Shown here: positions 3,870 to 53,055 of the stretch, in pieces
How the letters are laid out: every line of letters starts with the position of its first letter
Numbering within the stretch: the first letter of the stretch is position 1
Origin: Candidatus Bathyarchaeota archaeon
GTDB lineage: Archaea; Thermoproteota; Bathyarchaeia; Bathyarchaeales; DTEX01
Direction: 5' to 3'
Length of the DNA stretch: 64,000 nt
Assembly: GCA_018396995.1 (NCBI GenBank)
Contig: JAGTQB010000001.1
Location: 67,584-131,583, forward strand
The notes under the pieces: generated by a model
Database searches by the model: none
Told to the model about the DNA's origin: nothing
What the model saw: only the letters and a program-made list of their open reading frames with translations
Translations under genes and position numbers: made by a program

Positions 3870-4982
3870 TCATGTTAAGGTCAATGCGAGCAGCTCAGCA
3901 ATATCCATAACCCTAATTTTCTCTTCATTCCCAGTTGTCTTTACAGCATCCTCCATAGTGAGTAGACAAAAGGGACACGCCACCGCTAAAATCTCCGCTC
4001 CAGCCTCAACAGCCTCCTTAACTCTAATCTCTGCTAAGCGGGGTCCAGGGACATCAACCCACATTCTCCCACCACCCCCCTCACAGCATACACTTCTACT
4101 CCTTGAGCGGCTAAACTCCAGGAGCTTAACACCATTTATGCTTTCGATAACCTTTCGGGGCTCCTCAAAAATATTGTTCCGCTTGCCAAGGTAACATGGA
4201 TCATGGTAAATGACCACTTTATTAAGACTCTTTGCGGGAGAGATTTTCCCATTATCTATTAATTTTGCGAGGAACTGGGAGTGATGCCATACTTCTAAGT
4301 CCCTCTGCTTATACCTATTTTTGAAAGTGTCGAAGCCGTGCGGGCAATTAACTATGATCTGTCTAATCTCATACTTGTCAAACAGTTTTATGTTCTCCTC
4401 CATAAGATACTCAAAGAGACCCTTCTCACCCATACAATAGACTTCAGAGCCACAGCAATTCTCCTCCCCGCCAAGTATCCCAAAATCAATGTTTGCTAAG
4501 TTTAAGCATGCTACAAGGCTTCTTGCCACATTCTGAACCCTTGTATCATAGGATGTCGTGCACCCAACGTGGTAGAGTATATTAGCTCCCTGAGAAAAAT
4601 GCTTAACATTTAAATCTCGGCACCACTCAACGCGCTTTCCGCGTATTCTTCCCCACGGGTTTCCATTCATATACACGCTTTCTAGGGCATCCCTAATCGT
4701 CGGCGATACTTCCCCACTCTCAATAACAATGCTCCTAACGTCTATCAGGAACTCATATGGCTTCAACTGCCTCGGGCAGCGAATGCCGCATGTGGAGCAT
4801 GTTGTGCAGCTCCATAATTCGTTTGGTGGATGAATGGCGAGTCTGCCTAGGACGGAGACTTCACGCATATATTTCCTAACATTGAGACTTGTTTTCTTAG
4901 CGACTGGGCAACTTCCAGTACAGGTGCCACACTGAATACATTCTAGAAGACTATTCTTCTGAATAATTTCATGAAGGTTCAT
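3870..4982 (-). CDS. HdrD/GlcF/TfrB-like Fe-S oxidoreductase (two ferredoxin motifs plus two CCG domains)
   Basis: 370 aa. It has CIQCGTCTGSCP and CTTCSTCGIRCP cluster motifs, then two cysteine-rich CCG-type repeats (ENCCGSE...; SVCCEGGGG...CPFC). No obvious TM segments. Confidence 0.8.
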   Translation of the reverse strand: MNLHEIIQKNSLLECIQCGTCTGSCPVAKKTSLNVRKYMREVSVLGRLAIHPPNELWSCTTCSTCGIRCPRQLKPYEFLIDVRSIVIESGEVSPTIRDALESVYMNGNPWGRIRGKRVEWCRDLNVKHFSQGANILYHVGCTTSYDTRVQNVARSLVACLNLANIDFGILGGEENCCGSEVYCMGEKGLFEYLMEENIKLFDKYEIRQIIVNCPHGFDTFKNRYKQRDLEVWHHSQFLAKLIDNGKISPAKSLNKVVIYHDPCYLGKRNNIFEEPRKVIESINGVKLLEFSRSRSRSVCCEGGGGRMWVDVPGPRLAEIRVKEAVEAGAEILAVACPFCLLTMEDAVKTTGNEEKIRVMDIAELLALTLT

Positions 4983-5062
4983 CTATTACCCCATGATGAG
5001 GATTTAAGAATTAAAAGTTGTAAAAATTTAAAAAGCTTCTGGCTGAGGCGGAATATAGGGAA

Positions 5063-6232
5063 CTACTTTTCCCTTATAAGTAGTGTAATGAACCCACATA
5101 GCACATTGGGCAAGACTATGGAGTAAAATAATGCATGGTCAATTGTTAATGGGGTTATTAAAGCCCCTGAAATGACTGGACCGACAGCTCCCCCAAAGAG
5201 CCCCAGTGTTTGTGTTAGGCCTGTAGCCGCCGAGATATTCTTCCCTGGAACAGCCTCCTGAACAATCGTCACCAATAGACTTCTATGTGGAGATATGAAT
5301 ATTCCAAGTAGAACTACGCAGATCGCGGATATAAGTGAATGGTTTATTAGGAGGGCAGCTGCAGCCACCACCGCGGCGGCCATACTAACATAAAATGTCG
5401 TCTTTCTCCTTCCAATTCTCTCAGAGATTCTCCCAAATACTGGAGGGCTCATTGCACCACCGATGAAGAAGAGTCCCAGGATTAGGCTTAATTCGATCGG
5501 ACCAATGCTCCTTGAGAGGAGCAGAGATGGGAGCCAGGCGGTTGTAGAGAAGTAGCCGAAGCTGCCCAGAAAAATGCTGGTACATGAGATCAAAATATTC
5601 TTCATTTTAAGCAGACTGAAGAATGTTGTAGGCTTTTCCTCAATTGACGGGGGAGAGTGTACCAACGGGATCTGTATGAGAAGGGCTATTATCTCAAGAA
5701 CCCCCATTATAATGAATGGGGTTCTCCAATTCCCAAGAGCTACAAAGGCGCCTACTAGATAAGACCCCATAAGCCCACCTATTTGATAGCTTGCTAGACC
5801 AAGCCCCACCCCAAACCCCCTGACATTCCTGAGCAGCTCACCCATAAGCGAATAATAGCTCGGAATTATCATGCTGGAACCCACGCCAGCCATCGTCAAC
5901 GAGACGACTAGCAGAGGATAATTTGGCGAAGAGCTGAAGGATAAGACCCCTGCGGCGAGAAGCAAGTAGCCCAATATTAGCACCCTCTTCCTGCCGATTC
6001 GGTCCGCCATTAACCCGGATGGCGTTAACAGAATGGCGCTTGATAAAAGGTTAATCGAGTATAGGATCCCCGCCTGAAACTCGCTTATCCTCATCTCCGA
6101 AATAATGCTTGGAAGGGCCATGCCAATACTCAATCTAAACATGGAGAAAGAGAGGTAGCTTAAGAAGAGGACAAGAACTGTCCTCTCATCAACACTATTT
6201 CTCCTCATATACGCGGTTGACGAAGTCTTCAT
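5063..6232 (-). CDS. MFS-type transporter
   Basis: 389 aa, about 12 hydrophobic segments. It carries the MFS loop signature G.MADRIGRKRVL between TM2 and TM3. Confidence 0.8.
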   Translation of the reverse strand: MKTSSTAYMRRNSVDERTVLVLFLSYLSFSMFRLSIGMALPSIISEMRISEFQAGILYSINLLSSAILLTPSGLMADRIGRKRVLILGYLLLAAGVLSFSSSPNYPLLVVSLTMAGVGSSMIIPSYYSLMGELLRNVRGFGVGLGLASYQIGGLMGSYLVGAFVALGNWRTPFIIMGVLEIIALLIQIPLVHSPPSIEEKPTTFFSLLKMKNILISCTSIFLGSFGYFSTTAWLPSLLLSRSIGPIELSLILGLFFIGGAMSPPVFGRISERIGRRKTTFYVSMAAAVVAAAALLINHSLISAICVVLLGIFISPHRSLLVTIVQEAVPGKNISAATGLTQTLGLFGGAVGPVISGALITPLTIDHALFYSIVLPNVLCGFITLLIREK

Positions 6233-6303
6233 ACCCCATCAATTTAAGGGTGAGTAATGAAAATTATTGTCAAGGTTAAGTATATTATTTCAACGCTAAC
6301 CGA

Positions 6304-7188
6304 CTATAAACGGATTTTCTGTAGGCTGGTCACATAATTTTTTATGGAATTAACGTATAGTTCCTCACGCATGTATTCAGGCGAAATTAATTTTTCTAGG
6401 ATGGAAAGCCACGTCTTCGATGCAATTCTATCATAAAGTATGCCCTTTATCTTTACATCTATAGCTTTTTCTGGGCAAACCTCCCTACAAGCTCCGCAGT
6501 AAATGCAAAACTGCTCCTCAAGTTTGATATTGCCTCCCCTATCTAGGTATAAGGCTTTACTGGGGCATATCTCTACACATGCTTGACAACCTTTTGGACA
6601 ACGTTTCACATCTAATTGGAGCAGTCCTTGAAATGGCTTTGCAACAAATATTGCTCCTTGTGGACAGGCATACTCACACCTCCCACAGAAAATACATTTG
6701 CCACGATCCACCTGAACACTCAATATCCTTATTATCCTTCCATCCTTTTCCTCGGCTTTGATGCTTACAGCTTCAACTGGGCAGCTCTCTTTACAAGCAA
6801 GATCGCATGTGGGACTACACTTCCTCACATCAACGGTGACGTCTCTCAGAATATTCGGGAGCACTTCCTTTTCAACCGCCGGATTATACAATTCCCCATT
6901 TCTAGAAAGTCTTATCGCGTTTACTGGGCATAAATTAACGCAAACAGCGCAAAATGTGCATTCATTTATATTAATTGAAATTCCTCCCCTTTTTAAGAGC
7001 CTACCTTCATGCACCACAGCACTAAGGAGCTTTAGCGCCTCTTTATAGCATGCTTTTACACAGATGCCACAGCCGATACAACGCTTCTTATCAATCACCA
7101 GCTCGTCACATAAGCCTAACATCGTCCTTCTAGCAATAGTACATTCTTCCGATTCCAGTCTCCTCACTACTCTCCGCGCCATACCCAT
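6304..7188 (-). CDS. Polyferredoxin (six [4Fe-4S]-type motifs)
   Basis: 294 aa with six Cys-cluster motifs: CIGCGICVKAC, CTFCAVCVNLCP, CSPTCDLACKESCP, CIFCGRCEYACP, CPKGCQACVEICP, CIYCGACREVCP. Confidence 0.8.
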   Translation of the reverse strand: MGMARRVVRRLESEECTIARRTMLGLCDELVIDKKRCIGCGICVKACYKEALKLLSAVVHEGRLLKRGGISININECTFCAVCVNLCPVNAIRLSRNGELYNPAVEKEVLPNILRDVTVDVRKCSPTCDLACKESCPVEAVSIKAEEKDGRIIRILSVQVDRGKCIFCGRCEYACPQGAIFVAKPFQGLLQLDVKRCPKGCQACVEICPSKALYLDRGGNIKLEEQFCIYCGACREVCPEKAIDVKIKGILYDRIASKTWLSILEKLISPEYMREELYVNSIKNYVTSLQKIRL

Positions 7189-7322
7189 AATCGTTATTTC
7201 AAGAAATAATTATATTTTTCTTTCCGCTCCTCTAATATTTTATCTAAATTGTGGTGATGGAAAAGGCTGGGTGATGGTGGAGGGCGAGTTTTCTGGGAGG
7301 AGCCAATGCTGAGGGAGTTAGG

Positions 7323-9272
7323 ATAGGCGTATATGTATGCCACTGCGGTGTAAATATTGCTGGTGTAATTAATGTAAAGAAAGTTACTGAGTACGCACGT
7401 AATCTCCCAAACGTTATTATAGCCAAGGATCACCTATACCTCTGTTCAGATGCAGGTCAAGCGCTAATTAAGCAGGATATAAAAGAGTATGGGTTAAACC
7501 GCGTGGTTGTCGCCGCCTGCTCACCAAATCTTCACGAACAAACTTTTCGCAAGTGTATAGAAGATGCTGGGTTAAATAAATACCTGCTTGCCATGGCAAA
7601 CATTAGAGAACACTGCTCATGGGTGCATGAAAGCTGGCCTAAAGAGGCGACTGAGAAGGCTATTGATGCTGTTAGGATGGCTGTGGCCCGCGCCAACCTG
7701 CTTGAGCCCCTAGAAACAATTAAAGTCCCCGTTAAGAGAAGTTGCCTAGTGATTGGCGGGGGGATAGCTGGTATCCAAGCAGCTTTAGACCTCGCGAATG
7801 AAGGATTTGATGTTTACTTAGTTGAGAAGGAGCCAAGCATCGGGGGCCTCATGGCAAAATTTGATAAAACTTTCCCAACAATGGATTGCTCAATGTGCAT
7901 ATTATCCCCAAAGATGGCTGAGGTAATGCACCACCCAAAGATCCACCTCTTAACAAATGCTGAAGTCAAGACGGTTTCAGGCTTCATCGGTAATTTTAAA
8001 GTTGAGATCGAGATAAAACCACGGTATATTATAAGCGAAATCTGCAATGGTTGTGGGGAGTGCGTTAAAGTATGTCCTATTGAGGTTCCAAGCGAATTTG
8101 ATGAGAGACTTGGGCCTAGAAAAGCTATATTCGTCCCATTTCCCCAAGCCGTTCCCCTAATCTACATTATTGACATCGAAAATTGCATTAAATGTTACAA
8201 ATGTGTTGACGCTTGCGTGCAAGCGCGCGGGGCTAAAGCAATAGATTTTGCTCAGGAGCCAAAGAGGATGGAGATTGAAGTTGGGACAATAATTGTGGCA
8301 ACTGGATGCAGCACATTTGACCCATCGATTTTAGAGGAATATGGTTATGGCACCTATGAAAACGTGGTTACCGCGCTAGAGTTTGAGAGAATCCTAGCCC
8401 CAACTGGGCCGACCAGGGGCGTGATTTTAAGGCCCTCGGATGGAAGGATCCCGAAGCGTATCGCGTTCGTCCAATGTGTTGGATCTAGGGATAAGAGGAC
8501 GAATATTTACTGTTCAAGGGTCTGCTGTATGTATGCCACAAAGCAGGCTCTGTTAATCAAGGAGAGAATCCCAGACGCTAAGGTGACGATCTTTTACATT
8601 GATATGAGAGCCTTTGGGAAGGGGTTTGAAGAGTTTTATGCTAGGGCTCAGAGTGAAGGAGTATACTATATTAGAGGTAAGGTTGCAGAAATCATTGAAG
8701 ATCCAGGCACTAAAAATTTGAAGCTAGTTGCTGAGGACACCTTGTCCGGGGAGGTAATTGAGACTGAAGCAGACTTAGTGATTTTATCTATTGGGCTTAT
8801 TCCGTCAGCGTCGACGAAAGATTTGCGTGAAAGGATAGGTTTGTTGGTTGGACCTGACGGCTTCTTTAAGGAGGCGCATCCAAAACTAAGGCCTGTTGAC
8901 ACGATTGTCGATGGAATATTTATTGCGGGGGCTGCTCAGGGTCCAAAAGATATCTCGGACAGCGTCGCCCAAGCCAGTGCTGCAGCACAGAGAGCGAGCA
9001 TCCTCATGTCTACCGGAGAATTTGAGACGGAAGCAATAACCGCTAGAGTTAATGGCGATTTATGTAGTGGCTGCCTAATATGTGTTTCCATGTGCCCATT
9101 CAATGCGTTGGTTGTCGAGGGTAAGAACGTAAATGTTAACCAAATTCTTTGTAAGGGTTGTGGGGCCTGCGCTGCAGCATGCCCAGCTAAAGCCATAGAA
9201 ATAATGCATTTCAAAGATCAGCAAATCCTCGTTGAAATTAAGGCTCTTTTGGAAAATGTATCAAGGTTATAG
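7323..9272 (+). CDS. hdrA: Heterodisulfide reductase subunit A-like flavoprotein (HdrA, methanogen-type with N-terminal Cys domain); the start codon is unresolved
   Basis: The ORF track starts at GTG 7503, but the same frame is open from 7275. That upstream stretch encodes RIGVYVCHCGVNIAG...VVAACSPNLHE, the conserved HdrA N-terminal domain. It continues with the FAD fold VIGGGIAGIQAALDLA, an inserted ferredoxin domain (CNGCGECVKVCP, CIKCYKCVDAC) and a C-terminal 2x[4Fe-4S] (CSGCLICVSMCP, CKGCGACAAACP). The 5' end is placed at ATA 7323 only provisionally; the alternatives are CTG 7293 or a frameshift from ATG 7274. Confidence 0.85.
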   Translation: MGVYVCHCGVNIAGVINVKKVTEYARNLPNVIIAKDHLYLCSDAGQALIKQDIKEYGLNRVVVAACSPNLHEQTFRKCIEDAGLNKYLLAMANIREHCSWVHESWPKEATEKAIDAVRMAVARANLLEPLETIKVPVKRSCLVIGGGIAGIQAALDLANEGFDVYLVEKEPSIGGLMAKFDKTFPTMDCSMCILSPKMAEVMHHPKIHLLTNAEVKTVSGFIGNFKVEIEIKPRYIISEICNGCGECVKVCPIEVPSEFDERLGPRKAIFVPFPQAVPLIYIIDIENCIKCYKCVDACVQARGAKAIDFAQEPKRMEIEVGTIIVATGCSTFDPSILEEYGYGTYENVVTALEFERILAPTGPTRGVILRPSDGRIPKRIAFVQCVGSRDKRTNIYCSRVCCMYATKQALLIKERIPDAKVTIFYIDMRAFGKGFEEFYARAQSEGVYYIRGKVAEIIEDPGTKNLKLVAEDTLSGEVIETEADLVILSIGLIPSASTKDLRERIGLLVGPDGFFKEAHPKLRPVDTIVDGIFIAGAAQGPKDISDSVAQASAAAQRASILMSTGEFETEAITARVNGDLCSGCLICVSMCPFNALVVEGKNVNVNQILCKGCGACAAACPAKAIEIMHFKDQQILVEIKALLENVSRL

Positions 9273-9278
9273 AGAAAT

Positions 9279-9962
9279 TTATGTATGAGCCGCGCGCTTA
9301 AGAGGATACTTTTTGTCCATTTCCATATATTTCCAATAAAACTTCCTTATATGCTGGTCAACCCCCTCAAATAGGGAGGCTACATCTCTCGCCTTAAGGA
9401 TGGATAATAGTTTCTCTACTTTCATTAAGAGCTGCTCTATCGACGTTTTCCACATGCTCTCAGCTTCATCTTCAGAGACAAGGGATAGCGCCTCCGCAGG
9501 GCACAATTCTATACACCTGGGTTCCCCATTACATAGATCACATATTAGGGCCAGCGGTCTATCCGGATGTAGCGTAATTGCGCCGTAGGGACAGGCCATC
9601 GCGCACCACCCACATCGATCACACTTATCCTGGTCGCAAGAGATTAAGCCTACCTCATTTTGGAAGAGAGCATTCCTCGGACATGCCTTAACGCAGGGAG
9701 CGTTCTCACAGAATCTACAAGCTGTGACAACATTGAAGAAAGGCAAAATCCTCACCACATGGATTCTTGAGCGGAGTGGGCTAAGGGAATCCTCGCCTTT
9801 CTCTAGGACGCAAATAAGCTCACATAAACCACACCCAATACATTTACTTGGATCCACACCCACAAATTTCCTTGCACTTCCCTTAACATTAACGCCGCTG
9901 GACATTAAGTGTGGCACCCCATTTAAATCTGGAATAAGTTTGTTTTTGTTAGATTTCTCCAC
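9279..9962 (-). CDS. Four-cluster ferredoxin-like protein (DmsB/HybA-type 4Fe-4S subunit)
   Basis: 227 aa with four motifs: CIGCGLCELIC, CRFCENAPCVKACP, CDRCGWCAMACP, CDLCNGEPRCIELCP. It lies downstream of etfBA on the same strand. The start may be the internal Met at 9905. Confidence 0.75.
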   Translation of the reverse strand: MEKSNKNKLIPDLNGVPHLMSSGVNVKGSARKFVGVDPSKCIGCGLCELICVLEKGEDSLSPLRSRIHVVRILPFFNVVTACRFCENAPCVKACPRNALFQNEVGLISCDQDKCDRCGWCAMACPYGAITLHPDRPLALICDLCNGEPRCIELCPAEALSLVSEDEAESMWKTSIEQLLMKVEKLLSILKARDVASLFEGVDQHIRKFYWKYMEMDKKYPLKRAAHT

Positions 9963-9997
9963 CGCATAAAAGTAACCACTGTTAGAGCCAATTTATT

Positions 9998-10987
9998 TCA
10001 TTCCTTTCTAGCCCTTACCTCATCAATTTTCATTTTAAGCACTGGTATTATCTTGAATAAGTCTTCGACAACGCCATAATCTGAATAACCAAAGATGGGG
10101 GCTTTCGGATCCTTATTCACTGATATTACTAGCTCTGAGCCCCTCATCCCCAGAATATGTTGGAAAGAGCCGCTGATTCCAAGAGCAAGATATAGCTTTG
10201 GCTTAACAGTTTTCCCAGAGATCCCGACCTGTCGGTCACTTGGAAGCCAACCCTTATCCACAATTGGACGTGTGCAGGCTAGTACCCCACCCAACGATTT
10301 AGCCAGATCCTCGACTAACGGAATGTTACTTTTATCTTTTATTCCCCTTCCGATGGATACTATGATGTCAGCGGCAGTTATATCCACTCCCCCCGGCGGC
10401 GGTGGAACATACTTTATGAAGCGCTTCCTCAACACTACTCTTTCCATGGGAATTGATAACTCCTCTATTCTTCCACCCAATGGTGGAGAGGGCTTCTGGA
10501 CCATGAAGCTCCCCTGTCTCACAGTAACCATGTAGCTCTCGGACCTGCGGACCACAGCCCTAACATTAACCTTTCCACCATACATTTGCCGCGTAACTAT
10601 GAGTGAGTTGTTTTCAAAAGTTATGTCTATGCAGTCTGTGGCCAATGGAATATTTAGAGAAGCTGCTAGTCTAGGGGCGAGTTCAATGCCGTAAGATGTG
10701 TGCCCAATCAACGTTAATAATGGCTTTAGCTCCCTAATTACACGTGAAAGAACCTCCTGGTATAAGTCGGAATTAAAATGCTCAAATAATGGATTCTCAA
10801 CTAACAAAACTCTATTTGAATATTCTGCTAAAGTTGGTGCAAAACTTTTAACATCTTTACCCAGTACAATTGATATAACTTCGGCGCCAAGTTTACTGGA
10901 GAGATTAATGGCTTTAGTGAGCATCTCAAAGGTTATGTCTCTTAGCTGGCCCCCTCGATGCTCCGCCAAGACAAGTATTTCCACCAT
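9998..10987 (-). CDS. etfA: Electron transfer flavoprotein alpha subunit (EtfA/FixB)
   Basis: 329 aa. The C-terminal FAD-binding block is VSIGRG...RPIVD.GW....QVG.SGK.V.PKLYLALGISG..QH..G. It has a 1-nt TAATG overlap with etfB. Confidence 0.9.
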   Translation of the reverse strand: MVEILVLAEHRGGQLRDITFEMLTKAINLSSKLGAEVISIVLGKDVKSFAPTLAEYSNRVLLVENPLFEHFNSDLYQEVLSRVIRELKPLLTLIGHTSYGIELAPRLAASLNIPLATDCIDITFENNSLIVTRQMYGGKVNVRAVVRRSESYMVTVRQGSFMVQKPSPPLGGRIEELSIPMERVVLRKRFIKYVPPPPGGVDITAADIIVSIGRGIKDKSNIPLVEDLAKSLGGVLACTRPIVDKGWLPSDRQVGISGKTVKPKLYLALGISGSFQHILGMRGSELVISVNKDPKAPIFGYSDYGVVEDLFKIIPVLKMKIDEVRARKE

Positions 10988-11784
10988 TAAATTAATCCCC
11001 TCCTCCTTAAAATCTCAACTATCCTTGAGGCTACTTCATTCGGGCTCCCGCTAATAAACTCAACCTTCTTTTCAGCTGGCGGGGTAAACATTTCCTTAAC
11101 TCTTATCCATGAACCCGTCTCACTAACATCTTCTTCGCTTAGGCCTAAGTCCATAAGAGATAAAACCTTTATCTCCTTTTGCATAGCCCTTCGAATAGCC
11201 ATTATAGAGACATATCTCGGCTCATTTATCCCAGTTTGAATCGTGAATAACGCTGGCAGATCAACCTCAAGAACCTCCTCAAACCCTCCCTCAAGCTCGC
11301 GATTCACGATAGCTTTCCCATCCCTAAACTCTATCCTCTTAATCATTGTGGCGTGTGGGATTCCAAGCATCTCAGCGAGAACAGGCCCAACAAGAGCACT
11401 TTCATCATCACTAGCCTGCACCCCAGTTAATATTAGATCAAAGCGCATACCCTTAATAACATTATAGAGTATCTTAGCTATCGCGTAGGCATCCGAACCA
11501 GAAATTTTAGGGTCAGTCACACGGATCGCCCTATCTGCACCACGGGCCAGGCATTTGCGCAGTGTGCTATCAGCATCTTCGGGGCCAACGGTGATAACAG
11601 TAATAGTCCCGCCAAACTTCTCCTTGATACGCACAGCCTCTTCGATAGCATATTCATCCCACTCATTTATGTCGAAAACCAAGCCTTGCTTCTCTATATC
11701 CCTACCACTAGCATCTATTCTTATCTCGGCCTCCGCAGTCTCTGGAACATGCTTAACACAAACAATAATATCCAAGCAAACCAT
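10987..11784 (-). CDS. etfB: Electron transfer flavoprotein beta subunit (EtfB/FixA)
   Basis: 265 aa. It has IIVCVKHVPE at the N-terminus, the NEWDEYAIEEA block and LILTG.QASDD, typical of EtfB. Confidence 0.9.
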   Translation of the reverse strand: MVCLDIIVCVKHVPETAEAEIRIDASGRDIEKQGLVFDINEWDEYAIEEAVRIKEKFGGTITVITVGPEDADSTLRKCLARGADRAIRVTDPKISGSDAYAIAKILYNVIKGMRFDLILTGVQASDDESALVGPVLAEMLGIPHATMIKRIEFRDGKAIVNRELEGGFEEVLEVDLPALFTIQTGINEPRYVSIMAIRRAMQKEIKVLSLMDLGLSEEDVSETGSWIRVKEMFTPPAEKKVEFISGSPNEVASRIVEILRRRGLI

Positions 11785-12053: not shown

Positions 12054-13268
12054 TTAAGAGAATTTAAGAAGCGCTCTACGATATGTTGCTAAAGTTAAGA
12101 TGGATTCAAGTTTATCGCCTTCCTGCTTCCCTTTAAGAGTAACCCTTATACTATCGTTTGTGACTTCAACGCTTGCATATTGAACCCCTAAGTATTCTAG
12201 CAGGTCCTCGATATCACTGGCTTCAATGGGCTCTGGCTTCACATTAGTATTGCATGGACCCATGTTACACATGGCGCAGTACCTTCCATGCGTGTAAACA
12301 TTTGCTTCACATGCGGTCCTGAAGACAATGAAACCCATGTCCTCAGCAATAAGTTTGATCCTCCTCTTAAAATCTGATAATCTAATCTCGATTTGCTCAG
12401 AGCCCTTAATCGGCCCAGTTAATCTCCTCCTAATCTCACCCACATTAGCCCCATAACGCTCTAGATTCCTTAGAATTCTCTCGGTTACTCTCAATGAGCC
12501 GAGAACAATTGATTTTAAGCCGCTTTCAGCAGCTAAGCTAAGTATTTTCTCAGCCTCAACATCTGTTATTCCTGGAATTATCGGCCTCATAAAGAGGGAG
12601 ACTGATAAGCCGGCCCTTGAGGCCTCCCCAGCGGACTTAATTCTCTCCATCGGATCAGGAGCCCTTGGCTCAACACTTCTGTTAGATATAGTTACCACCG
12701 TAACGAGGACGCTTGTCCTCGGGTCTCCTGATGAAATGCCCTTTGAAATATTCTCTGTTAGAATGGCTTTTGTCGATACTTGTGTTGGAAGTCTTAACCA
12801 CATGTATATCTCCCTCATGTAGCTTAGAGCCTGCGTCGCTGTCTCACGGAGGAATGGTTCTGTAACTGAGCCATATGCTGCCAGCGTTTTCTCCGGGATA
12901 ACATATGGATTTAATGCTAACGCATATGTCATCTCCTCTGGCTTTAGCGGGTATGGTCTTGTCCTCGCTGGAAAGCCCATGTCGTAGATGTAACAGTATG
13001 CGCAGATGTAGCTGCAGCCCACGCCAGTATGTATTGTTATGCCGCACGGCCTCGGCCTCCTCCTTGAGTGGTGGTCGGAACTGGCAGCTAGCTTAGACTT
13101 ATCATCAAGCAGTCTCTCTAGTCTAGATAGAACCGTCTTCTTATAATTGAATAGGTTAACTAAACGCGTCAAATGATATTCTCCATAGAAATATTTGGGG
13201 GAAGAAGGATAAATAGTGCTAGCTAATGTAGCTTCACGAACTTTAACACGGCTACATGGGCGAAACAA
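12054..13268 (-). CDS. Radical SAM protein, SplB/COG1533-like (DNA-photolyase-like family)
   Basis: 404 aa. It has GVGCSYICAYCY (Cx3Cx2C with the CxYCY flavour of the SplB-like family) and a C-terminal Cys patch, CEANVYTHGRYCAMCNMGPC. The TTG start at 13268 is uncertain. Confidence 0.65.
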   Translation of the reverse strand: MFRPCSRVKVREATLASTIYPSSPKYFYGEYHLTRLVNLFNYKKTVLSRLERLLDDKSKLAASSDHHSRRRPRPCGITIHTGVGCSYICAYCYIYDMGFPARTRPYPLKPEEMTYALALNPYVIPEKTLAAYGSVTEPFLRETATQALSYMREIYMWLRLPTQVSTKAILTENISKGISSGDPRTSVLVTVVTISNRSVEPRAPDPMERIKSAGEASRAGLSVSLFMRPIIPGITDVEAEKILSLAAESGLKSIVLGSLRVTERILRNLERYGANVGEIRRRLTGPIKGSEQIEIRLSDFKRRIKLIAEDMGFIVFRTACEANVYTHGRYCAMCNMGPCNTNVKPEPIEASDIEDLLEYLGVQYASVEVTNDSIRVTLKGKQEGDKLESILTLATYRRALLKFS

Positions 13269-13478: not shown

Positions 13479-14759
13479 ATGCTTCGTGAAGCCATCTTGA
13501 TGACTGCTTTAACAGCGCTTCTTGTGTTAGTTGGCTATGTTGTCGGCCTGTTCCTCGGGAACCCTACAACTGCCATTCAAGTAGCGCTTATCTCGGCAGC
13601 CATAATGAATATAGCGGTTTACATCTTCTCCGATAGGATTGTTCTTGCAATGACTGGCGCTAAACTTATATCGCCATCCGATGAGCCCCAATTACACCAA
13701 ACTATTGAACGATTAGCTAGGGAGGCTAGGATACCTAAGCCTAGGGTTGCAATAGTTCCAGTAGATCTACCAAACGCATTTGCTACTGGGAGGGGGCCGG
13801 GGAGGGCGGTTGTTGCTGTAACTAGGGGTTTACTACGCGAGCTTAATAGTGATGAGGTTGAGGCGGTTCTAGGGCATGAGATATCCCATATAAGGCATAG
13901 GGATACTTTAGTGGCAACAATGGCTGCAACCATTGCTGGCGCCATAAGTTACATAGCCTATATGGGTAGGTGGGGTCTCTGGCTCGGGGACGGTAGGAGG
14001 AGTGAGGTAAATCAACTATTACTCCTCCTCGCAGTAATCTTTGCGCCAATAGCTGCCACAATGATTCAGCTAGCGATATCGAGGGAGCGGGAGTATGAAG
14101 CTGATGAGGGAAGCGCAATGATAACTAAGAAGCCAATAAGCCTTGCTAATGCACTAATAAAGATTGAAAGGGCTGTGCGTAGGAGGCCAATGGTGGATGC
14201 AAATCCAGCGACAAGCCCACTCTGGATAGTTAACCCATTTCGCGGAGAGACACTAATGGAGCTTTTCTCAACCCACCCGCCAACCCGCAAGAGGATTGAG
14301 AGACTTAGGAAAATAGCTCGGGAGATGGGGGTGAATGACGCACCCCTCCTAGAGTATACTGAAGAGCCCATAAAGACTCGGGTAGAGCGGGTGGAGACCG
14401 GGACTTCTATAAGAGTGCACCCTTATGCCCAGTTAAGGGCGGTGGCCACACTTAATTCCGGGCTCGTCCTGAAAGACTTCGATGAGGTTGAGAGGGCTAT
14501 TCTGGTTTCATTATATAGGGGCGGTGATATGAGCCACTCGGCGCTTCCAAAAGTTCTAGCAAAAAGCTTCGGGATACACCTATCTCTGCGCGAGGTTGAA
14601 GAAGCCATAGATAGGCTTTCAGCCAAGGGACTTATCTCTTTGAGGAGCGTTTTCACAGCGTACATCTTTGGGACAGAATACACACGCATGACTATAGGTT
14701 TAACACCATTAGGGAGGAGTATAGCTCGTAAGCTGGCTGGAGAGACTCGGGGAGACTGA
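13479..14759 (+). CDS. htpX: HtpX-family M48 zinc metalloprotease with a C-terminal winged-helix-like extension
   Basis: 426 aa. It has N-terminal TM segments, HEISHIRHRD (HExxH, 13875-13889), the downstream EYEADEGSA and STHPP..KR. About 130 extra C-terminal residues (...ERAILVSLYRGGDMSHSALPKVLAKSFGIHLSLREVEEAIDRLSAKGLISL...) resemble a MarR-like wHTH. Confidence 0.85.
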   Translation: MLREAILMTALTALLVLVGYVVGLFLGNPTTAIQVALISAAIMNIAVYIFSDRIVLAMTGAKLISPSDEPQLHQTIERLAREARIPKPRVAIVPVDLPNAFATGRGPGRAVVAVTRGLLRELNSDEVEAVLGHEISHIRHRDTLVATMAATIAGAISYIAYMGRWGLWLGDGRRSEVNQLLLLLAVIFAPIAATMIQLAISREREYEADEGSAMITKKPISLANALIKIERAVRRRPMVDANPATSPLWIVNPFRGETLMELFSTHPPTRKRIERLRKIAREMGVNDAPLLEYTEEPIKTRVERVETGTSIRVHPYAQLRAVATLNSGLVLKDFDEVERAILVSLYRGGDMSHSALPKVLAKSFGIHLSLREVEEAIDRLSAKGLISLRSVFTAYIFGTEYTRMTIGLTPLGRSIARKLAGETRGD

Positions 14760-14850: not shown

Positions 14851-15633
14851 ATGGCTATGGTTAGCTTAAGTGGAGCCTTCAGGAAGAGGGTGCTCATGGT
14901 GTATTTAACGGCGGGCGACCCATATGTAGATAGTTGGGTTATAGAGACCTTATCCGAGCATGGGGTTGACATCTTTGAGTTCGGCATACCGACGGCTAGA
15001 CCTAAATATGATGGATTAACTATTAAGGCGAGCTATAGGAGGGCTATTGAAAGCGGAGTAACACTGGAGAAGAGCTTCCAGTTTATAGAGGGTTTTAGGC
15101 TGAGGCATAAGGTGGTTCTAACATACTTTGAGTATGCTAGGAGCATAGGTTTAGAGAGACTTATGAGCTATGCCCTAAACGCCGGAGCTGAGGGGGTCTT
15201 ACTTCCAGATCTATTAATAGACTACTCCGAGGATGCAGATGTATATGTGAGGCTATGCAAGCAGTATGGCTTCGAACCAATTTTCTTCATAACAAGCTCC
15301 TTCCCTTATAAACTCATCTCCGAAGTCGCCCGCCTAAACCCAGCATTCATCTACATGGGTTTAATGGCTTCGACTGGAACCCTCCTACCAATAACCATAA
15401 GCAGAAACATTAGCATAATAAAGAGTCTCATAAACAATACACCACTACTCACGGGCTTCGCAATAAGCGAGCCGAAGCAAGTTCTGGAGTGCATTAGGGC
15501 TGGGGCCGATGGTGTCGTAATTGGGAGCGCCATAATAAGGCTTATAAGCGGGGGTGGAGAGAAGCAGCATATCAAAGAGGAATTAAGGAACTATATTAGC
15601 AGCATAAAGGAGGCGCTGGAGGCCCCGGTATGA
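14851..15633 (+). CDS. trpA: Tryptophan synthase alpha chain-like protein (divergent)
   Basis: 260 aa with YLTAGDP, FEFGIP and C-terminal GFAIS / VIGSAI phosphate-binding blocks. The SDP Asp of canonical TrpA reads ARP here (Arg codon 14998-15000). Confidence 0.75.
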   Translation: MAMVSLSGAFRKRVLMVYLTAGDPYVDSWVIETLSEHGVDIFEFGIPTARPKYDGLTIKASYRRAIESGVTLEKSFQFIEGFRLRHKVVLTYFEYARSIGLERLMSYALNAGAEGVLLPDLLIDYSEDADVYVRLCKQYGFEPIFFITSSFPYKLISEVARLNPAFIYMGLMASTGTLLPITISRNISIIKSLINNTPLLTGFAISEPKQVLECIRAGADGVVIGSAIIRLISGGGEKQHIKEELRNYISSIKEALEAPV

Positions 15634-41247: not shown

Positions 41248-41404
41248 TTCATCTCACCTTCAGCATGATTTAATATCGAGTATTATAGTTTATGGTTAAG
41301 AATATTAAAGTTACTTAAAGCTGACTGAAGGAAACTTTATTTAAGTTTCCTAACACTATTTATCTAAAAAACATATGTTAAGGGTGATTTAAACGAGGAC
41401 TGGT

Positions 41405-42220
41405 ATTGGACTAGTTGGTTGCGGCACAATAGGTAGCGTTGTTGCTGAGGCTATAGACGACGGGAAGATTGAGAACGCAAGTCTAATAATTATTTATGAT
41501 ATTGTTCCAGAGCATGCTGAAAAACTCGCCTCTAAATTGAAACGTAGACCCCTTATAGCAAGATCTTTAAGCGAGATTTTAGAGAGAAGTGATGTCCACA
41601 TCGTTGTTGAAGCAGCATCACAGGAATTTGTCAAAGAACATGCTGTCGAGATATTAAGCGGCAACAAAGACTTACTAATTATGAGCGTGGGCGCCCTACT
41701 AGATGAATCACTACTCTCCGAGATAATTGACGTCACCAGAAGAACTGGTAGGAAAGTTTATGTTCCATCCGGGGCCATCGTTGGCATAGATAATATTAAG
41801 TCCGCGGCACTAGGAAAGGTTGAGGAGGTAATTCTTGTAACTAGAAAACCTCCGGAAAGCTTTAGGGGAACTGATTTAATCGAGAAGAGTGGAATCGATA
41901 TTTCCTCAATAAAGGAGCCACTCCTTCTCTATGAGGGGCCAGCTCGTAAGGCTGTCGAAATACTCCCACAGAACATTAATGTTGCGGCCACTCTAAGCTT
42001 GGCTGGTATAGGGCCTGATAAAACAAAGGTTAGAGTTATAGCTGATCCGAAAATAAAGGATATAATCCATGAGGTCTATGTTAGGGGTGAGTTCGGAGAA
42101 ATGTATACTAGAACCGTAAATAAGCCCTTCCCAAGCAATCCTAGAACAAGCTATATTGCAGCCCTTTCTGCCATAGCAACCCTAAAAAGAATAACTAGTA
42201 ATATGCTCATCGGTACATAG
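41405..42220 (+). CDS. nadX: L-aspartate dehydrogenase (NadX); the start codon is unresolved
   Basis: The track ORF starts at TTG 41537. The same frame is open from 41393 and encodes TGIGLVGCGTIGSVVAEAI..., the Rossmann GxGxxG of NadX. Later blocks are VVEAASQEFVKEH, VPSGAI.G.D, NVAATL and HEV.VRGEFGEM....N.P...NP.TS. The 5' end is placed at ATT 41405 provisionally. Confidence 0.8.
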   Translation: MGLVGCGTIGSVVAEAIDDGKIENASLIIIYDIVPEHAEKLASKLKRRPLIARSLSEILERSDVHIVVEAASQEFVKEHAVEILSGNKDLLIMSVGALLDESLLSEIIDVTRRTGRKVYVPSGAIVGIDNIKSAALGKVEEVILVTRKPPESFRGTDLIEKSGIDISSIKEPLLLYEGPARKAVEILPQNINVAATLSLAGIGPDKTKVRVIADPKIKDIIHEVYVRGEFGEMYTRTVNKPFPSNPRTSYIAALSAIATLKRITSNMLIGT

Positions 42221-45664: not shown

Positions 45665-45796
45665 TGGTGGATTGCCGGCCAAAGGGCGCGGGAACCACCC
45701 AAACCCATTCCGAACTTGGAAGTTAAACCGCGCTCCGTCCCCGGTTTTAGTGGGGTCTTCGGCCCCGCGAAGCTGGGGAAGCTGGCAATCCACCAT
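45665..45796 (+). rRNA. rrf: 5S ribosomal RNA (not linked to 16S/23S)
   Basis: The terminal helix pairs TGGTGGATTGCC with GGCAATCCACCA. Internal conserved blocks are CCCATTCCGAACTTGGAAGTTAAAC and GTGGGG...CCCC...AAGCTGGG. Confidence 0.9.
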
Positions 45797-45800
45797 TTAT

Positions 45801-46112
45801 CTATTCTTTCTCTCCCTCAAGAAGCCATTTTAGAGGTATATCTTGGTAAGTTCCATCCGGGAGAGTTCTACGGATTGTTATTGGAAGGACACCCCGTTTT
45901 AGCTCTTCAAGAGCAATATCTACTGGACTCTTCATATTCTCTTTAACTTCTACCAGAATGGGAGCGCCCATAGCTATCTGTAGCGCCCTTGCACCAACAA
46001 TCCTAGCTTTTTCAAAGCGAGTGAGCTTTGGTGGACCAATTAAAACTCTCCTTTTACTTTCAGCGTATAAGTTCTTGATCTCCTGAGATTCTTGGAATGA
46101 AGAGCTAATAAT
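45801..46112 (-). CDS. rpoK: DNA-directed RNA polymerase subunit Rpo6 (RpoK); the start codon is unresolved
   Basis: It is not in the ORF track. Reverse translation gives [54 protein letters not shown]...[25 protein letters not shown]..., the Rpo6/omega-like core. The frame is open only from 46121 and has no ATG/GTG/TTG before the conserved LTRFEKAR block. ATT ATT (46112-46107) follows TAAGGAGGAGGG. Confidence 0.8.
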
Positions 46113-46278
46113 CCCTCCTCCTTATTAAGATCTCACCTTAGGAATTAAGTTTTTTAAGCGACTTAATATATTTGATGCACACTAAAACATTTAAAGTAAA
46201 TATAAATTTTACGATGTTTACTAGCTTACTTAGGCATGATAAAGGTTTAAATGTCACGGCTATTATCGCTATTAAGGG

Positions 46279-50720: not shown

Positions 50721-51293
50721 TTAAAATAACCTTATGACTTTTTTCCCTCTTGCCTGCGGGATAACCTTTATCCTAGCATTCTCAAATTCTCTTTTGAGTT
50801 CTTCTCCCATATATAGTTCATGTAGGAAAACGCTTAGAGCTCCGACCTCAGAATGCGGTTGCAGGGTTATTGAGACATTCCAGTCAGCGAGATCGTAGAC
50901 TAATCTCGGAACCTTTTCTCCCCCAACAATGATAAGTTTATCCTTTTTAGACTTCCTTATTTCTTGAATGACTTCATTTAATGGTAAACCATACATTGTT
51001 AAATGTATAGCCTCGCCACCCATCTTTTTCCACTCTCTTATCTTTTTGACCCACTCCTCAACATACTCTATACTGAAAGGGCCTCCCCACGACTCCACGA
51101 CTTTTCTAATACTCGCCTCAACTTTCTCATCCTTTTGCCCACTATAAAATGCTCCGTGAGCACCAAATGCTCTAGCGACAAGAAAAACATGTGTTGTAAT
51201 GCGCTTATCCCTCTCAGGTCTATGCCCAAGTCTAAGGACAAAAACCTTCCAACTATGTTGATGACACAATTTTTCCACCGACTCTTTCAACAA
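50721..51293 (-). CDS. tRNA (cytidine56-2'-O)-methyltransferase aTrm56
   Basis: It has VLRLGHRPERDKRITTHV.LVARAFGA, WGGPF, HLTMYG, IIVGGEKVP, QPHSEV.AL and IPQARGKKV. The true start is probably TTG 51269. Confidence 0.9.
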   Translation of the reverse strand: MLKESVEKLCHQHSWKVFVLRLGHRPERDKRITTHVFLVARAFGAHGAFYSGQKDEKVEASIRKVVESWGGPFSIEYVEEWVKKIREWKKMGGEAIHLTMYGLPLNEVIQEIRKSKKDKLIIVGGEKVPRLVYDLADWNVSITLQPHSEVGALSVFLHELYMGEELKREFENARIKVIPQARGKKVIRLF

Positions 51294-52512
51294 GCGCCAT
51301 AATCTTCTCTATAAGATTCTGCGGCACACCAATGTATACTTTTAGAGAATCATTATCGTATCCTATTCTATGCACCTTCGTATTCTCATATATCCAAGAG
51401 AGGAGAGAAAATGATTCCTGTTGCAGGGGCATTGTTATAGTTAAATCCTCATACCTTTTAAGGGTCTTAGACATCTCCATTTTGAGTAAATCAAGGTTAA
51501 CCCCATATAAGGCTGATATTGGAACGAATTTTAAGTTCTTATAGGCTTCACTTAAATATGCGACCTTATGATACAATTCATCCTTCGATAATAAGTCGAT
51601 CTTATTTAATGCAACTATCATCGGTATCCCCATTGCATCTATCTTTCTCAACGCATCAAGAGAAGATGCAATTTTTCTCATAACCTCATCAATTGTCTCA
51701 CTTATATCGACTACTAATAAAATTAGATCAGAGCAAGTGATCTCTTCCAATGTTGAGTAAAAGGCTTCGATTAAGGTTATGGGCAAACGTTCTATGAAGC
51801 CTACAGTATCCGTAATGAAAGCCTTCTCACCAAAAATATCCATAACTCTTGTCGTTGTAGACAACGTTGTGAAGACCTCTGGTCCAGTTAGAACCTCCTC
51901 TCTTGTGAGGGCGTTAAAAAGCGTGCTCTTGCCAGAGTTAGTGTATCCTGCGAGTGATATGAGGGAAAGACCAAGCTCAGCCCTCCGCGCCCTATGAACC
52001 TGCCTTAACCTTCTAATCTCCTTAAGCTTCTCCTGTATTTTATGAATCCTCCTTTTAATCTCATTATAGTAGACATCTGCCTCATATTTGCCCAATCCAT
52101 GGAAGCCTGGTTGCTCGCCCATCTTAGCAAGCCTAACCTTCTCCCTGGCATGGGCTAGCTCATACTGCAGCCGTGCCAATTCAATTTGGAGTTTAGCCTC
52201 TTTAGTCGAAGCCCTCTTAACAAATATTTCAAGAATTAGCTGGAAGCGATCAATAACTTCTACATTAGTTGCTTTAGCAAGATTATATATTTGAATGACT
52301 TTAAGGTCATTACCAAAAATTATTTTCTCCGCCCCGAGATTCTTAACCATCTGGGTGAGCTCTTTAACCTTTCCCGGACCAATATTATAGCGTGGATGGG
52401 GGAACCTTGTCTGTTCAATAACTCCAACAACTTCGTAGCCAGCTGCCTCGGCTAAACTCTTAAGCTCCTCTATGCATGATTTCTCAAAGGGCCCTCTGCG
52501 ATAAACTAGAAT
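51253..52512 (-). CDS. hflX: GTPase HflX; the start codon is unresolved
   Basis: The track ORF begins at ATG 52350, but the frame is open up to 52527. That stretch encodes ARTRAILVYRRGPFEKSCIEELKSLAEAAGYEVVGVIEQTR...GPGKVKEL, the HflX N-terminal domain. The G domain follows: GYTNSGKSTLFN, DTVGF, NKID. The 5' end is set at ATT 52512 provisionally. Confidence 0.85.
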   Translation of the reverse strand: MLVYRRGPFEKSCIEELKSLAEAAGYEVVGVIEQTRFPHPRYNIGPGKVKELTQMVKNLGAEKIIFGNDLKVIQIYNLAKATNVEVIDRFQLILEIFVKRASTKEAKLQIELARLQYELAHAREKVRLAKMGEQPGFHGLGKYEADVYYNEIKRRIHKIQEKLKEIRRLRQVHRARRAELGLSLISLAGYTNSGKSTLFNALTREEVLTGPEVFTTLSTTTRVMDIFGEKAFITDTVGFIERLPITLIEAFYSTLEEITCSDLILLVVDISETIDEVMRKIASSLDALRKIDAMGIPMIVALNKIDLLSKDELYHKVAYLSEAYKNLKFVPISALYGVNLDLLKMEMSKTLKRYEDLTITMPLQQESFSLLSWIYENTKVHRIGYDNDSLKVYIGVPQNLIEKIMALVERVGGKIVSST

Positions 52513-52527
52513 CGCCCTAGTCCTAGC

Positions 52528-53055
52528 CTACCCCTCCTCATCCCCCTTTATGTGGACAACTTCGCCAAACGTAACTCCTCTTTTACTTCTCATAGCCATG
52601 TTAGTCGACTTGTCTAGATCAATCTCAGGCTGCTTAACCAACAATTTTATCTTCAATGCACGTTCAAGCTTAGTCGCTAGCCTAATGTCAGGTACGATTC
52701 TTTCACCTTCAATCTTCTTAATCACGGACTCCTTCTCTCCAATAATTTTGCCAAGATCCTCTGGCGTTAAGCCCAATTTCTCACGTGCTCTTTTAATTAC
52801 TGAGCCAAAGCCCTCAACTATCTCATAATCATCTTGTATTTGCGTCTGCGTTTGGGAGTATTTACCGCTGACAACTGATTTTATGCTTCTTGATAATTTT
52901 GGGGCAGCCTTTTTTGCAAGGTTCTCTTCTTTTCTAGGGGACCAGTAACCTGACCCAAGCTTAGCACACTCAGCACATGTAATAACATTAGCTCCCTCAA
53001 TGATCACTCTATGCGGCTTCCCTATAATTTTTCGGCCACAGACATCGCACTGCAA
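52528..53055 (-). CDS. Multiprotein bridging factor 1 (aMBF1): zinc ribbon plus cro/C1-type HTH
   Basis: 175 aa with the N-terminal CDVCGR...CAEC and a C-terminal HTH (LGLTPEDLGKIIGEKESVIKKIEGERIVP). Confidence 0.85.
   Translation of the reverse strand: MQCDVCGRKIIGKPHRVIIEGANVITCAECAKLGSGYWSPRKEENLAKKAAPKLSRSIKSVVSGKYSQTQTQIQDDYEIVEGFGSVIKRAREKLGLTPEDLGKIIGEKESVIKKIEGERIVPDIRLATKLERALKIKLLVKQPEIDLDKSTNMAMRSKRGVTFGEVVHIKGDEEG

Follow-up and report, generated by a model that had tools for sequence, protein, structure and literature searches.

In Escherichia coli, infC and pcnB carry AUU as a conserved near-cognate start codon. In lacI and T4 rIIB, early nonsense or frameshift lesions are rescued by downstream re-initiation. 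A near-cognate start, or an early lesion with a restart, is already known as a class of gene beginning. Among archaea, the interrupted fucA1 gene of Saccharolobus solfataricus was shown experimentally to be expressed by -1 frameshifting (PMC8211752). Here we describe hdrA in a stretch of 64,000 nucleotides (nt) of Candidatus Bathyarchaeota archaeon DNA, hereafter the window (GenBank assembly GCA_018396995.1, contig JAGTQB010000001.1). This gene must either start at an unusual codon, probably a CTG at position 7293, or the enzyme is not made.

The hdrA frame of the window is closed by TGA 7272-7274 and open on the forward strand from 7275 to TAG 9270-9272, as read from the sequence, a six-frame table of open reading frames (ORFs) and the translation. 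Its first in-frame ATG, GTG or TTG is GTG 7503 (7503-7505), codon 77 of the open stretch. A phmmer search of the PDB matched the open stretch to the HdrA structures 8RVU, 8RVV and 5ODC; with 8rvu_a (E = 5.2e-261), query residues 13-660 align with chain residues 10-654, and the onset at residue 13 corresponds to 7311. Homology is full-length and covers the N-terminal Cys-containing (..IGVYVCHCG..), FAD-binding and ferredoxin-like domains of the HdrA family, and close homologues of the window protein are named HdrA family proteins. The conserved N-terminal domain begins with EGVRIGVYVCHCG (7311-7349), in which RIGVYVCHCG is encoded at 7320-7349. Since HdrA homology begins at 7311, a start at GTG 7503 would remove the N-terminal cluster-binding Fe-S domain. 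The 15 codons from the stop to the conserved motif would contain no start with a probability of about 0.47, which is not statistically odd; the anomaly of hdrA is functional rather than statistical.

The original prediction, made by a model from the sequence, had reported that no canonical initiator precedes the N-terminal domain and that translation must begin before about 7329. The absence was confirmed, all coordinates given for the 5' region are correct, and the limit can be tightened to 7311 or before. The codons GAG GGA GTT AGG ATA (7311-7325) differ from those of the outgroups L001 and L006 at synonymous positions only. Because the codons for E-G-V-R (7311-7322) change only synonymously, they must be translated in the hdrA frame, which puts the start at or before 7311.

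Several partial signals lie ahead of this limit. An ATG in the hdrA frame at 7257-7259, the start of a 671-amino-acid (aa) form of the protein, is followed in frame by TGA 7272, and position 7272 is a C/T single-nucleotide polymorphism (SNP). This ATG lies inside the first copy of an 8-nt direct repeat, GGTGATGG, at 7253-7260 and 7270-7277 on the forward strand. The repeat was missed in the original prediction; its two copies flank 9 nt, each resembles a Shine-Dalgarno (SD) sequence (GGTGAT), and they form the ends of a 17-nt deletion described below. ATG 7274, in the +2 frame, opens a short ORF (MVEGEFSGRSQC, 7274-7312) with its stop at TGA 7310-7312. A third short ORF, likewise overlooked, encodes MLRELG in frame 1 from ATG 7306 to TAG 7324-7326, with GGGAGGAG just 5' of it, and its TAG overlaps the in-frame ATA 7323 as A-TAG. 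CTG 7293 and ATA 7323 are both in the hdrA frame, and the two SD-like runs assigned to this region, GGTGGAGGG (7276-7284, with a GGAGG core at 7279-7283) and GAGGGAG (7311-7317), were confirmed. In the T4 run at 7289-7292 the +2 frame (TTT TCT) and the hdrA frame (TTT CTG) overlap. Two TATA-like boxes were found by eye upstream of hdrA, at 7204-7219 and 7233-7243, and do not fix the transcription start. Folding gave no significant stable structure in the hdrA leader (z = -0.27), and Rfam at its gathering threshold returned from the 64-kb window only a 5S rRNA, with nothing in this leader.

The locus was compared in 17 conspecific assemblies (window included) from NCBI, JGI, ENA and Logan. Between 7200 and 7360 they form three haplotypes and are otherwise invariant. 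Eleven assemblies (the window, L005, L098-L103 and L105-L107) carry T at 7272 and hence TGA, and four (L086-L089) carry C, which gives CGA (Arg6) and leaves the ATG 7257 ORF open. In the remaining two, L097 and L104 (GCA_038822555.1 and GCA_038837515.1), a 17-nt deletion between the GGTGATGG copies has shortened the leader and removed ATG 7257. A canonical in-frame hdrA start is accordingly missing from 13 of the 17. Position 7272 is the sole differing column in a 181-nt alignment of C- and T-allele DNA, and the T4 run is identical in all 17 assemblies. In the window strain, one C-to-T transition (CGA to TGA) cuts off the only in-frame ATG. Among the options listed by the original prediction, ATG 7257 followed by TGA thus names the immediate cause here; what it did not foresee is that the lack of a start is a strain-level state of hdrA and that GenBank already carries a CTG start.

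The missing start is not an assembly error, and the sequence is reproducible, because 17 assemblies from different projects and assemblers agree. An artefact, either an indel near 7290-7310 or a miscall at 7272, is refuted for practical purposes by this agreement and retains a negligible probability: 7270-7360 is identical but for 7272 in all 17, and both SNP alleles recur in several independent assemblies. A variant with a 1-nt difference that would fuse the ATG 7274 frame to hdrA was found in none of them. One of the assemblies, L005 (GCA_038867635.1), is 99.8% identical to the window with scattered SNPs, and is identical at 7193-7353. It contains N gaps between duplicated ends of 128-129 nt, which are typical of short reads and mark it as an Illumina-type scaffold. 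The JGI metagenome JzSedJan11 is among the carriers of the hdrA locus, which indicates that the organism comes from hot-spring sediment. An exact-pattern allele count in JGI metagenome contigs gave 0 matches and is uninformative, a scan of genome contigs did not return the window species (nearest match 80% identical), and two window proteins used as queries matched only short JGI contigs that end before the start regions.

Deposited annotations of the protein disagree about where it begins. The best protein match, P0001 (MEM2432655.1, 'Candidatus Bathyarchaeia'), has 659 aa and begins MGGANAEGVRIGV, at the equivalent of CTG 7293, so the GenBank pipeline already annotates a CTG start. Within the 90%-identity cluster of P0001 the same protein is annotated in five lengths: 559 aa (from ATG at 7593), 589 aa (from GTG 7503, used by some gene callers, as in P0130 and P0131), 638 aa (from ATT 7356), 659 aa (from CTG 7293) and 671 aa (from ATG 7257). 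The 671-aa form (P0124, P0128, P0126) begins MEKAGRWWRASFLGGANAEGVRIGV and has an Arg codon where the window has TGA, as confirmed in the DNA of L086-L089. Some GenBank records also contain a 60-aa ORF with no family on the strand opposite the hdrA 5' end (7244-7426, reverse strand, in the window; 1152-1334 in L103; 1389-1571 in L107). This is probably a shadow ORF, its call being a consequence of the truncated hdrA annotation.

The ancestral start was sought in the nearest outgroups, L001, L003 and L006, which have 79-80% protein identity. The outgroups L001, L006, L188 and L189 start hdrA at ATG and have uninterrupted ORFs. An alignment of orthologues, suggested with the original prediction, places the outgroup ATG opposite ATG 7274, with matches in the upstream GGC.GATG and in codons 4-5 (xGC GAG). 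ATG 7257 is not homologous to this start and sits in the SD-like GGTGAT without an SD at proper spacing. ATG 7274 is probably the ancestral start. From this ATG to the conserved Arg codon (AGG 7320) there are 46 nt in the window, compared with 42 nt in L006 and 48 nt in L001, which leaves the ancestral start one base out of frame in every strain of the species. With T3 in place of T4, the ATG 7274 ORF would read MVEGEFLGGANAEGVRIGV in the hdrA frame, and the 1-nt insertion probably lies in the T4 run. The earlier proposal of ATG 7274 with a +1 shift therefore stands as regards homology of this codon to the outgroup start, and fails as regards an assembly indel, which the identity of T4 in 17 assemblies excludes.

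Between TGA 7272 and 7311 the only in-frame near-cognate codons, that is, codons with one mismatch, are AGG 7281 and CTG 7293. The GGAGG 5-mer begins at -14 from CTG 7293, its core lying 9 nt upstream. Window genes whose starts are unambiguous mostly have the first base of the SD 5-mer between -14 and -10, and CTG 7293 is a near-cognate codon within this usual spacing. The NCBI annotation of a CTG start was also counted in its favour. The original prediction had offered CTG 7293 or ATA 7323 as the initiator. CTG 7293 remains the best mechanistic guess; ATA 7323, or AGG 7320, as the sole start is disfavoured by the synonymous-only change in the E-G-V-R codons.

We propose that an extra base in the T4 run put the ancestral ATG 7274 out of frame and that SD-guided initiation at the near-cognate CTG 7293 would still yield HdrA. 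The protein most likely translated (7293-9272, CTG to TAG, forward strand) would have 659 aa and begin nine residues before the conserved RIGVYVCHCG strand. The segment 7253-7273 would then be a dispensable 5' leader and the C/T SNP at 7272 nearly neutral. That HdrA is made from CTG 7293 in this way has, in our estimation, about an even chance of being correct. A CTG start at hdrA would fit an apparent tolerance of near-cognate starts in the lineage, seen as ATT at rpoK and ACG at nadX in the window and as ACG at rpoK elsewhere.

Polymorphism within the species bears on whether hdrA is still in use. In every one of the 17 copies the 659-codon ORF that starts at 7293 is intact, with no disabling change across 1980 nt. 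Seven sites are polymorphic, five of them synonymous and two conservative (I/V, R/K); if 24% of changes were synonymous by chance, a binomial estimate gives P of about 0.01 for this 5:2 ratio, which would be improbable for neutral change and speaks for purifying selection. A statement that all SNPs between the window and L005 are synonymous was dropped, as three synonymous and two conservative non-synonymous differences were found. The two lesions of the ATG 7257 ORF are confined to about 20 nt, and the downstream 1980 nt are untouched. Allele combinations at hdrA violate the four-gamete rule, which indicates recombination or a mixed consensus. As regards the features expected of a pseudogene, hdrA has a 5' lesion, its ORF remains intact in 17 of 17 copies with five synonymous and two conservative changes, and low divergence limits the test.

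Several observations weigh against initiation at CTG 7293. It is purely inferred from sequence. AGG 7281 also has a well-placed SD, GGTGAT at -11, which the T allele perfects. The C-allele strains may truly use ATG 7257, in which case the T allele would be a real nonsense mutation, and at a within-species divergence of about 0.3% the intact ORF and the 5:2 ratio are compatible with a young null allele. The odd start codon is not conserved among hdrA orthologues, as the outgroups have ATG and the C-allele strains an open ATG 7257 ORF. Placement of the ancestral indel in the T run rests on a short, poorly conserved alignment. Among the other start-less genes of the window hflX has no convincing near-cognate start, and the four genes may not share a single mechanism. 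A review (PMC8211752) reports that aIF1 of archaea discriminates against non-canonical starts.

The recurrence claimed by the original prediction at nadX, rpo6 (rpoK) and hflX was borne out, each of these genes having no canonical start ahead of its conserved N-terminal sequence. Their start regions are identical in three sister metagenome-assembled genomes (MAGs), which, with the agreement of the 17 assemblies at hdrA, upholds the argument that random error is not the cause. GenBank annotates ATT, ATC and ATA starts in these regions, and all other genes of the sister-MAG loci start with ATG, GTG or TTG. Comparison was also made with a sister species, L096, which has a syntenic locus and an RpoK 85% identical to that of the window, and in which the three genes likewise lack a canonical start.

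In nadX (41393-42220, forward strand) the start region at 41384-41395 reads GTG ATT TAA ACG, and ACG 41393, from which GGTGA begins at -10, is the probable start. The 5' sequence continues as GGGTGAT TTAA ACG AGG ACT GGT ATT GGA CTA GTT GGT TGC GGC. A Pfam NAD-binding profile matches from residue 9 onward. No canonical start precedes the Rossmann motif, the first being codon 48. L096 has GTG ATT TTA ACG at this place (L096 13449, reverse strand). The GTG of nadX belongs to the SD-like GGTGAT, and the conserved ACG is followed by a synonymous change in an Arg codon. In rpoK (45801-46121, reverse strand) the start region at 46107-46127 reads TAA TAA GGA GGA GGG ATT ATT (then AGC), ATT being the probable start, and the first ATG lies past the conserved motif. 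The corresponding region of L096 is GAGGAGGAGAG ATT ATT. The odd codon is therefore conserved between the window and L096, as ATT in rpoK and as ACG in nadX. Synonymous differences between the two species begin right after ATT ATT in rpoK and right after ACG in nadX, which supports these codons as the true starts. A 5S rRNA gene (45671-45790, forward strand; Rfam, 72 bits) lies 10 nt past the 3' end of rpoK, on the opposite strand.

The case of hflX (51253-52527, reverse strand) is less clear. Its start region at 52513-52547 reads GAGGAGGGG TAG GCT AGG ACT AGG GCG (then ATT), with AGG as a candidate start. An upstream helix-turn-helix (HTH) gene lies in the same frame, separated only by TAG, and an ATG (52541) is out of frame. 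In L096 (3664-3710) the region reads GTG AGG GGA GGG AGG GGA TAG ACT AGG ACT AAG, with an in-frame GTG six codons before TAG. Relatives start with M/V-R-G-G-x-x-x-T-R-A-I-I-V-Y-R-R or directly before YRR. In both species the in-frame TAG falls inside this N-terminal extension, and the sole candidate at SD distance is a conserved AGG.

Near-cognate starts at rpoK extend beyond this species pair. From metagenomes we collected 80 rpoK loci of other Bathyarchaeia (L108-L187), 76 of them usable, and 27 of the 76 lack any canonical start from the in-frame stop upstream to the GPPKLTRFE motif. In the largest group a thermosome gene precedes rpoK, in the form ...GGGGAG TAT TAG NNN ACG TCN AAA AAA GAG.... 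The ACG, one codon past the thermosome stop (TAG/TAA), is invariant at all three positions in 24 unique sequences, while the preceding codon is unconstrained and third positions nearby vary. A sub-group has ATA in place of the ACG, and the window clade has ATT ATT. The pattern resembles conserved initiation at non-AUG codons, which may be coupled to termination of the gene upstream. We offer only tentatively, as something somewhat less probable than its opposite, the broader proposal that Bathyarchaeia routinely and heritably use near-cognate starts (ACG, ATT, ATA, CTG and perhaps AGG), placed by an SD or by termination, at defined genes including rpoK, with hdrA a fresh, polymorphic case in which CTG replaces frameshifted or lost ATGs. 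Literature searches returned nothing on how Bathyarchaeia use start codons, nor any paper on these MAG accessions.

The most serious challenge to a CTG-started HdrA is that the window carries a loss-of-function or hypomorphic allele, with ATG 7257 working in the C-allele strains, the T allele and the deletion null or nearly so, and HdrA dispensable or backed up by paralogues. The C-allele strains do have a clean 671-codon ORF from a canonical ATG, seven SNPs in 1980 nt are too few for secondary decay to be expected yet, and many long HdrA-like matches show that HdrA paralogues are common in Bathyarchaeia. However, 13 of 17 assemblies, drawn from several studies and representing at least three haplotype backgrounds, carry a state that this account treats as null. 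The two supposedly disabling events fall in the same 20 nt, and the other 1980 nt have none. ATG 7257 lies inside an SD-like motif that leaves no spacing and has no homology to the outgroup start, and the start-less state is fixed in three further genes, among them rpoK, which encodes an RNA polymerase subunit. We consider a null allele unlikely. Less probable again is a +1 slip, programmed or tolerated, in which ribosomes start at ATG 7274, tRNA-Phe moves from UUU 7289-7291 to UUU 7290-7292, and CUG 7293 is read next, giving MVEGEFLGGANAEGVRIGV. All three haplotypes retain ATG 7274, the counterpart of the outgroup start in the alignment, UUU-U (7289-7292) allows perfect re-pairing and is the only plausible +1 slip site, the SD-like GGAGG stands 5 nt upstream of it as in bacterial prfB, and the product would have 15 residues before the conserved Arg compared with 14-16 in the outgroups. 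Yet the zero-frame A-site codon is an ordinary UCU, neither a stop nor demonstrably rare, and the zero-frame stop comes six codons further on, at 7310. ATG 7274 has no SD at normal distance, neither folding (z = -0.27) nor Rfam points to a stimulatory element, and the arrangement is confined to one species, the outgroups having uninterrupted ATG ORFs. No +1 frameshift is known from experiments in archaea; the frameshifting example in PMC8211752 is a -1 shift in fucA1.

Two further routes to the protein are highly improbable. Translation could start at ATG 7257 and pass through the codon-6 UGA, decoded by a near-cognate tRNA (Arg, Trp or Cys) or recoded; this ATG is in frame and the sister allele has the sense codon CGA. 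TGA is nonetheless the ordinary stop of many window genes (for example 3870-4982, 9998-10987 and 14851-15633), Rfam found no selenocysteine insertion (SECIS) or other element, and the sister residue is Arg rather than Cys, which does not suggest selenocysteine. On these grounds TGA reassignment or selenocysteine at hdrA was rejected. The deletion haplotype has no ATG 7257 from which to read, and the in-frame stops differ among genes (TAA in nadX, TAG in hflX of L096), so that no single reassignment fits. By the other route, which we rate equally low, ribosomes would load at ATG 7306, translate MLRELG, stop at TAG 7324-7326 and re-initiate at the overlapping ATA 7323. The SD-like GGGAGGAG, which spans -11 to -4 relative to ATG 7306, and the ATAG overlap, with a geometry like that of ATGA-coupled gene pairs, would allow such a relay, and the rpoK ACG one codon past the thermosome stop in other Bathyarchaeia suggests that near-cognate re-initiation occurs. 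Against it, E-G-V-R upstream of ATA 7323 changes only synonymously relative to the outgroups and so must be translated, and an ATA start would drop the conserved Arg/Lys.

With initiation at CTG 7293 as the preferred reading, hdrA resembles infC and pcnB in having no AUG, GUG or UUG and an apparent one-mismatch start at a normal distance past a strong SD. The likeness to infC AUU is closer for rpoK and nadX, in which the odd codon is conserved between species, whereas the state of hdrA is young and polymorphic within one species. The AUU of infC is sensed by IF3, whereas hdrA has no known autoregulatory logic and its host is an archaeon with initiation of the aIF1/aIF2 type. In hdrA, as in the lacI and rIIB cases, an SD-like sequence and a possible restart codon come after an early stop, and the protein body is intact; those restarts use AUG, GUG or UUG, whereas hdrA has only CTG or AGG before the conserved domain. 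It shares with prfB, the gene for release factor 2 (RF2), an SD-like element just 5' of a codon capable of +1 re-pairing, and a short zero-frame ORF with the main ORF in +1. In prfB the site is CUU UGA C, with a stop in the A site, and is widely conserved; in hdrA UCU occupies the A site, the SD is spaced by 5 nt instead of 3, and the arrangement is confined to one species. The comparison with fucA1 holds insofar as both are archaeal metabolic genes interrupted in some strains and full-length in close relatives, with the surrounding DNA otherwise identical. The fucA1 shift is -1, on an A-rich heptamer in mid-gene, whereas the hdrA lesion is at the extreme 5' end.

If HdrA is made from CTG, the locus would be a natural experiment on the replacement of a lost start, with intermediate alleles segregating in hot-spring populations. 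The invariant ACG of rpoK suggests conserved non-AUG initiation in archaea, where aIF1 is thought to enforce fidelity. For annotation, a gene caller that accepts only canonical starts strips HdrA of its N-terminal Fe-S domain, NadX of its Rossmann motif and RpoK of its conserved helix, and metabolic reconstructions from Bathyarchaeia MAGs could misjudge hdrA, nadX and rpoK as truncated.

Some features of the surrounding DNA were also recorded. L005 has runs of about 98 N at 4402-4499 and 13096-13194, flanked by duplications of 128-129 nt, where the window is continuous (4460-4588 and 12928-13055); in public annotation these runs split its HdrD-like and radical-SAM genes into fragments. The window also holds an intact 426-aa ORF for an M48-family peptidase (13479-14759, forward strand; Pfam E = 6e-40), and in the sister MAG loci L005, L086 and L089 no gene has been called at the corresponding position. 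No tRNA genes were found in the 64 kb window, and neither hdrBC nor mvhD was seen in it. Window positions 3870-11784 encode an HdrD-like Fer4_8+CCG protein, an MFS transporter, a polyferredoxin divergent from hdrA, a Fer4_11 protein and EtfAB. The window protein resembles methanogen HdrA (5ODC, 8RVU) in its full-length homology, N-terminal domain included (E = 5e-261), and differs in its context of polyferredoxins, an HdrD-like CCG protein and EtfAB, a neighbourhood that suggests an HdrA-type complex linked to Etf, and not the complex of methanogens.

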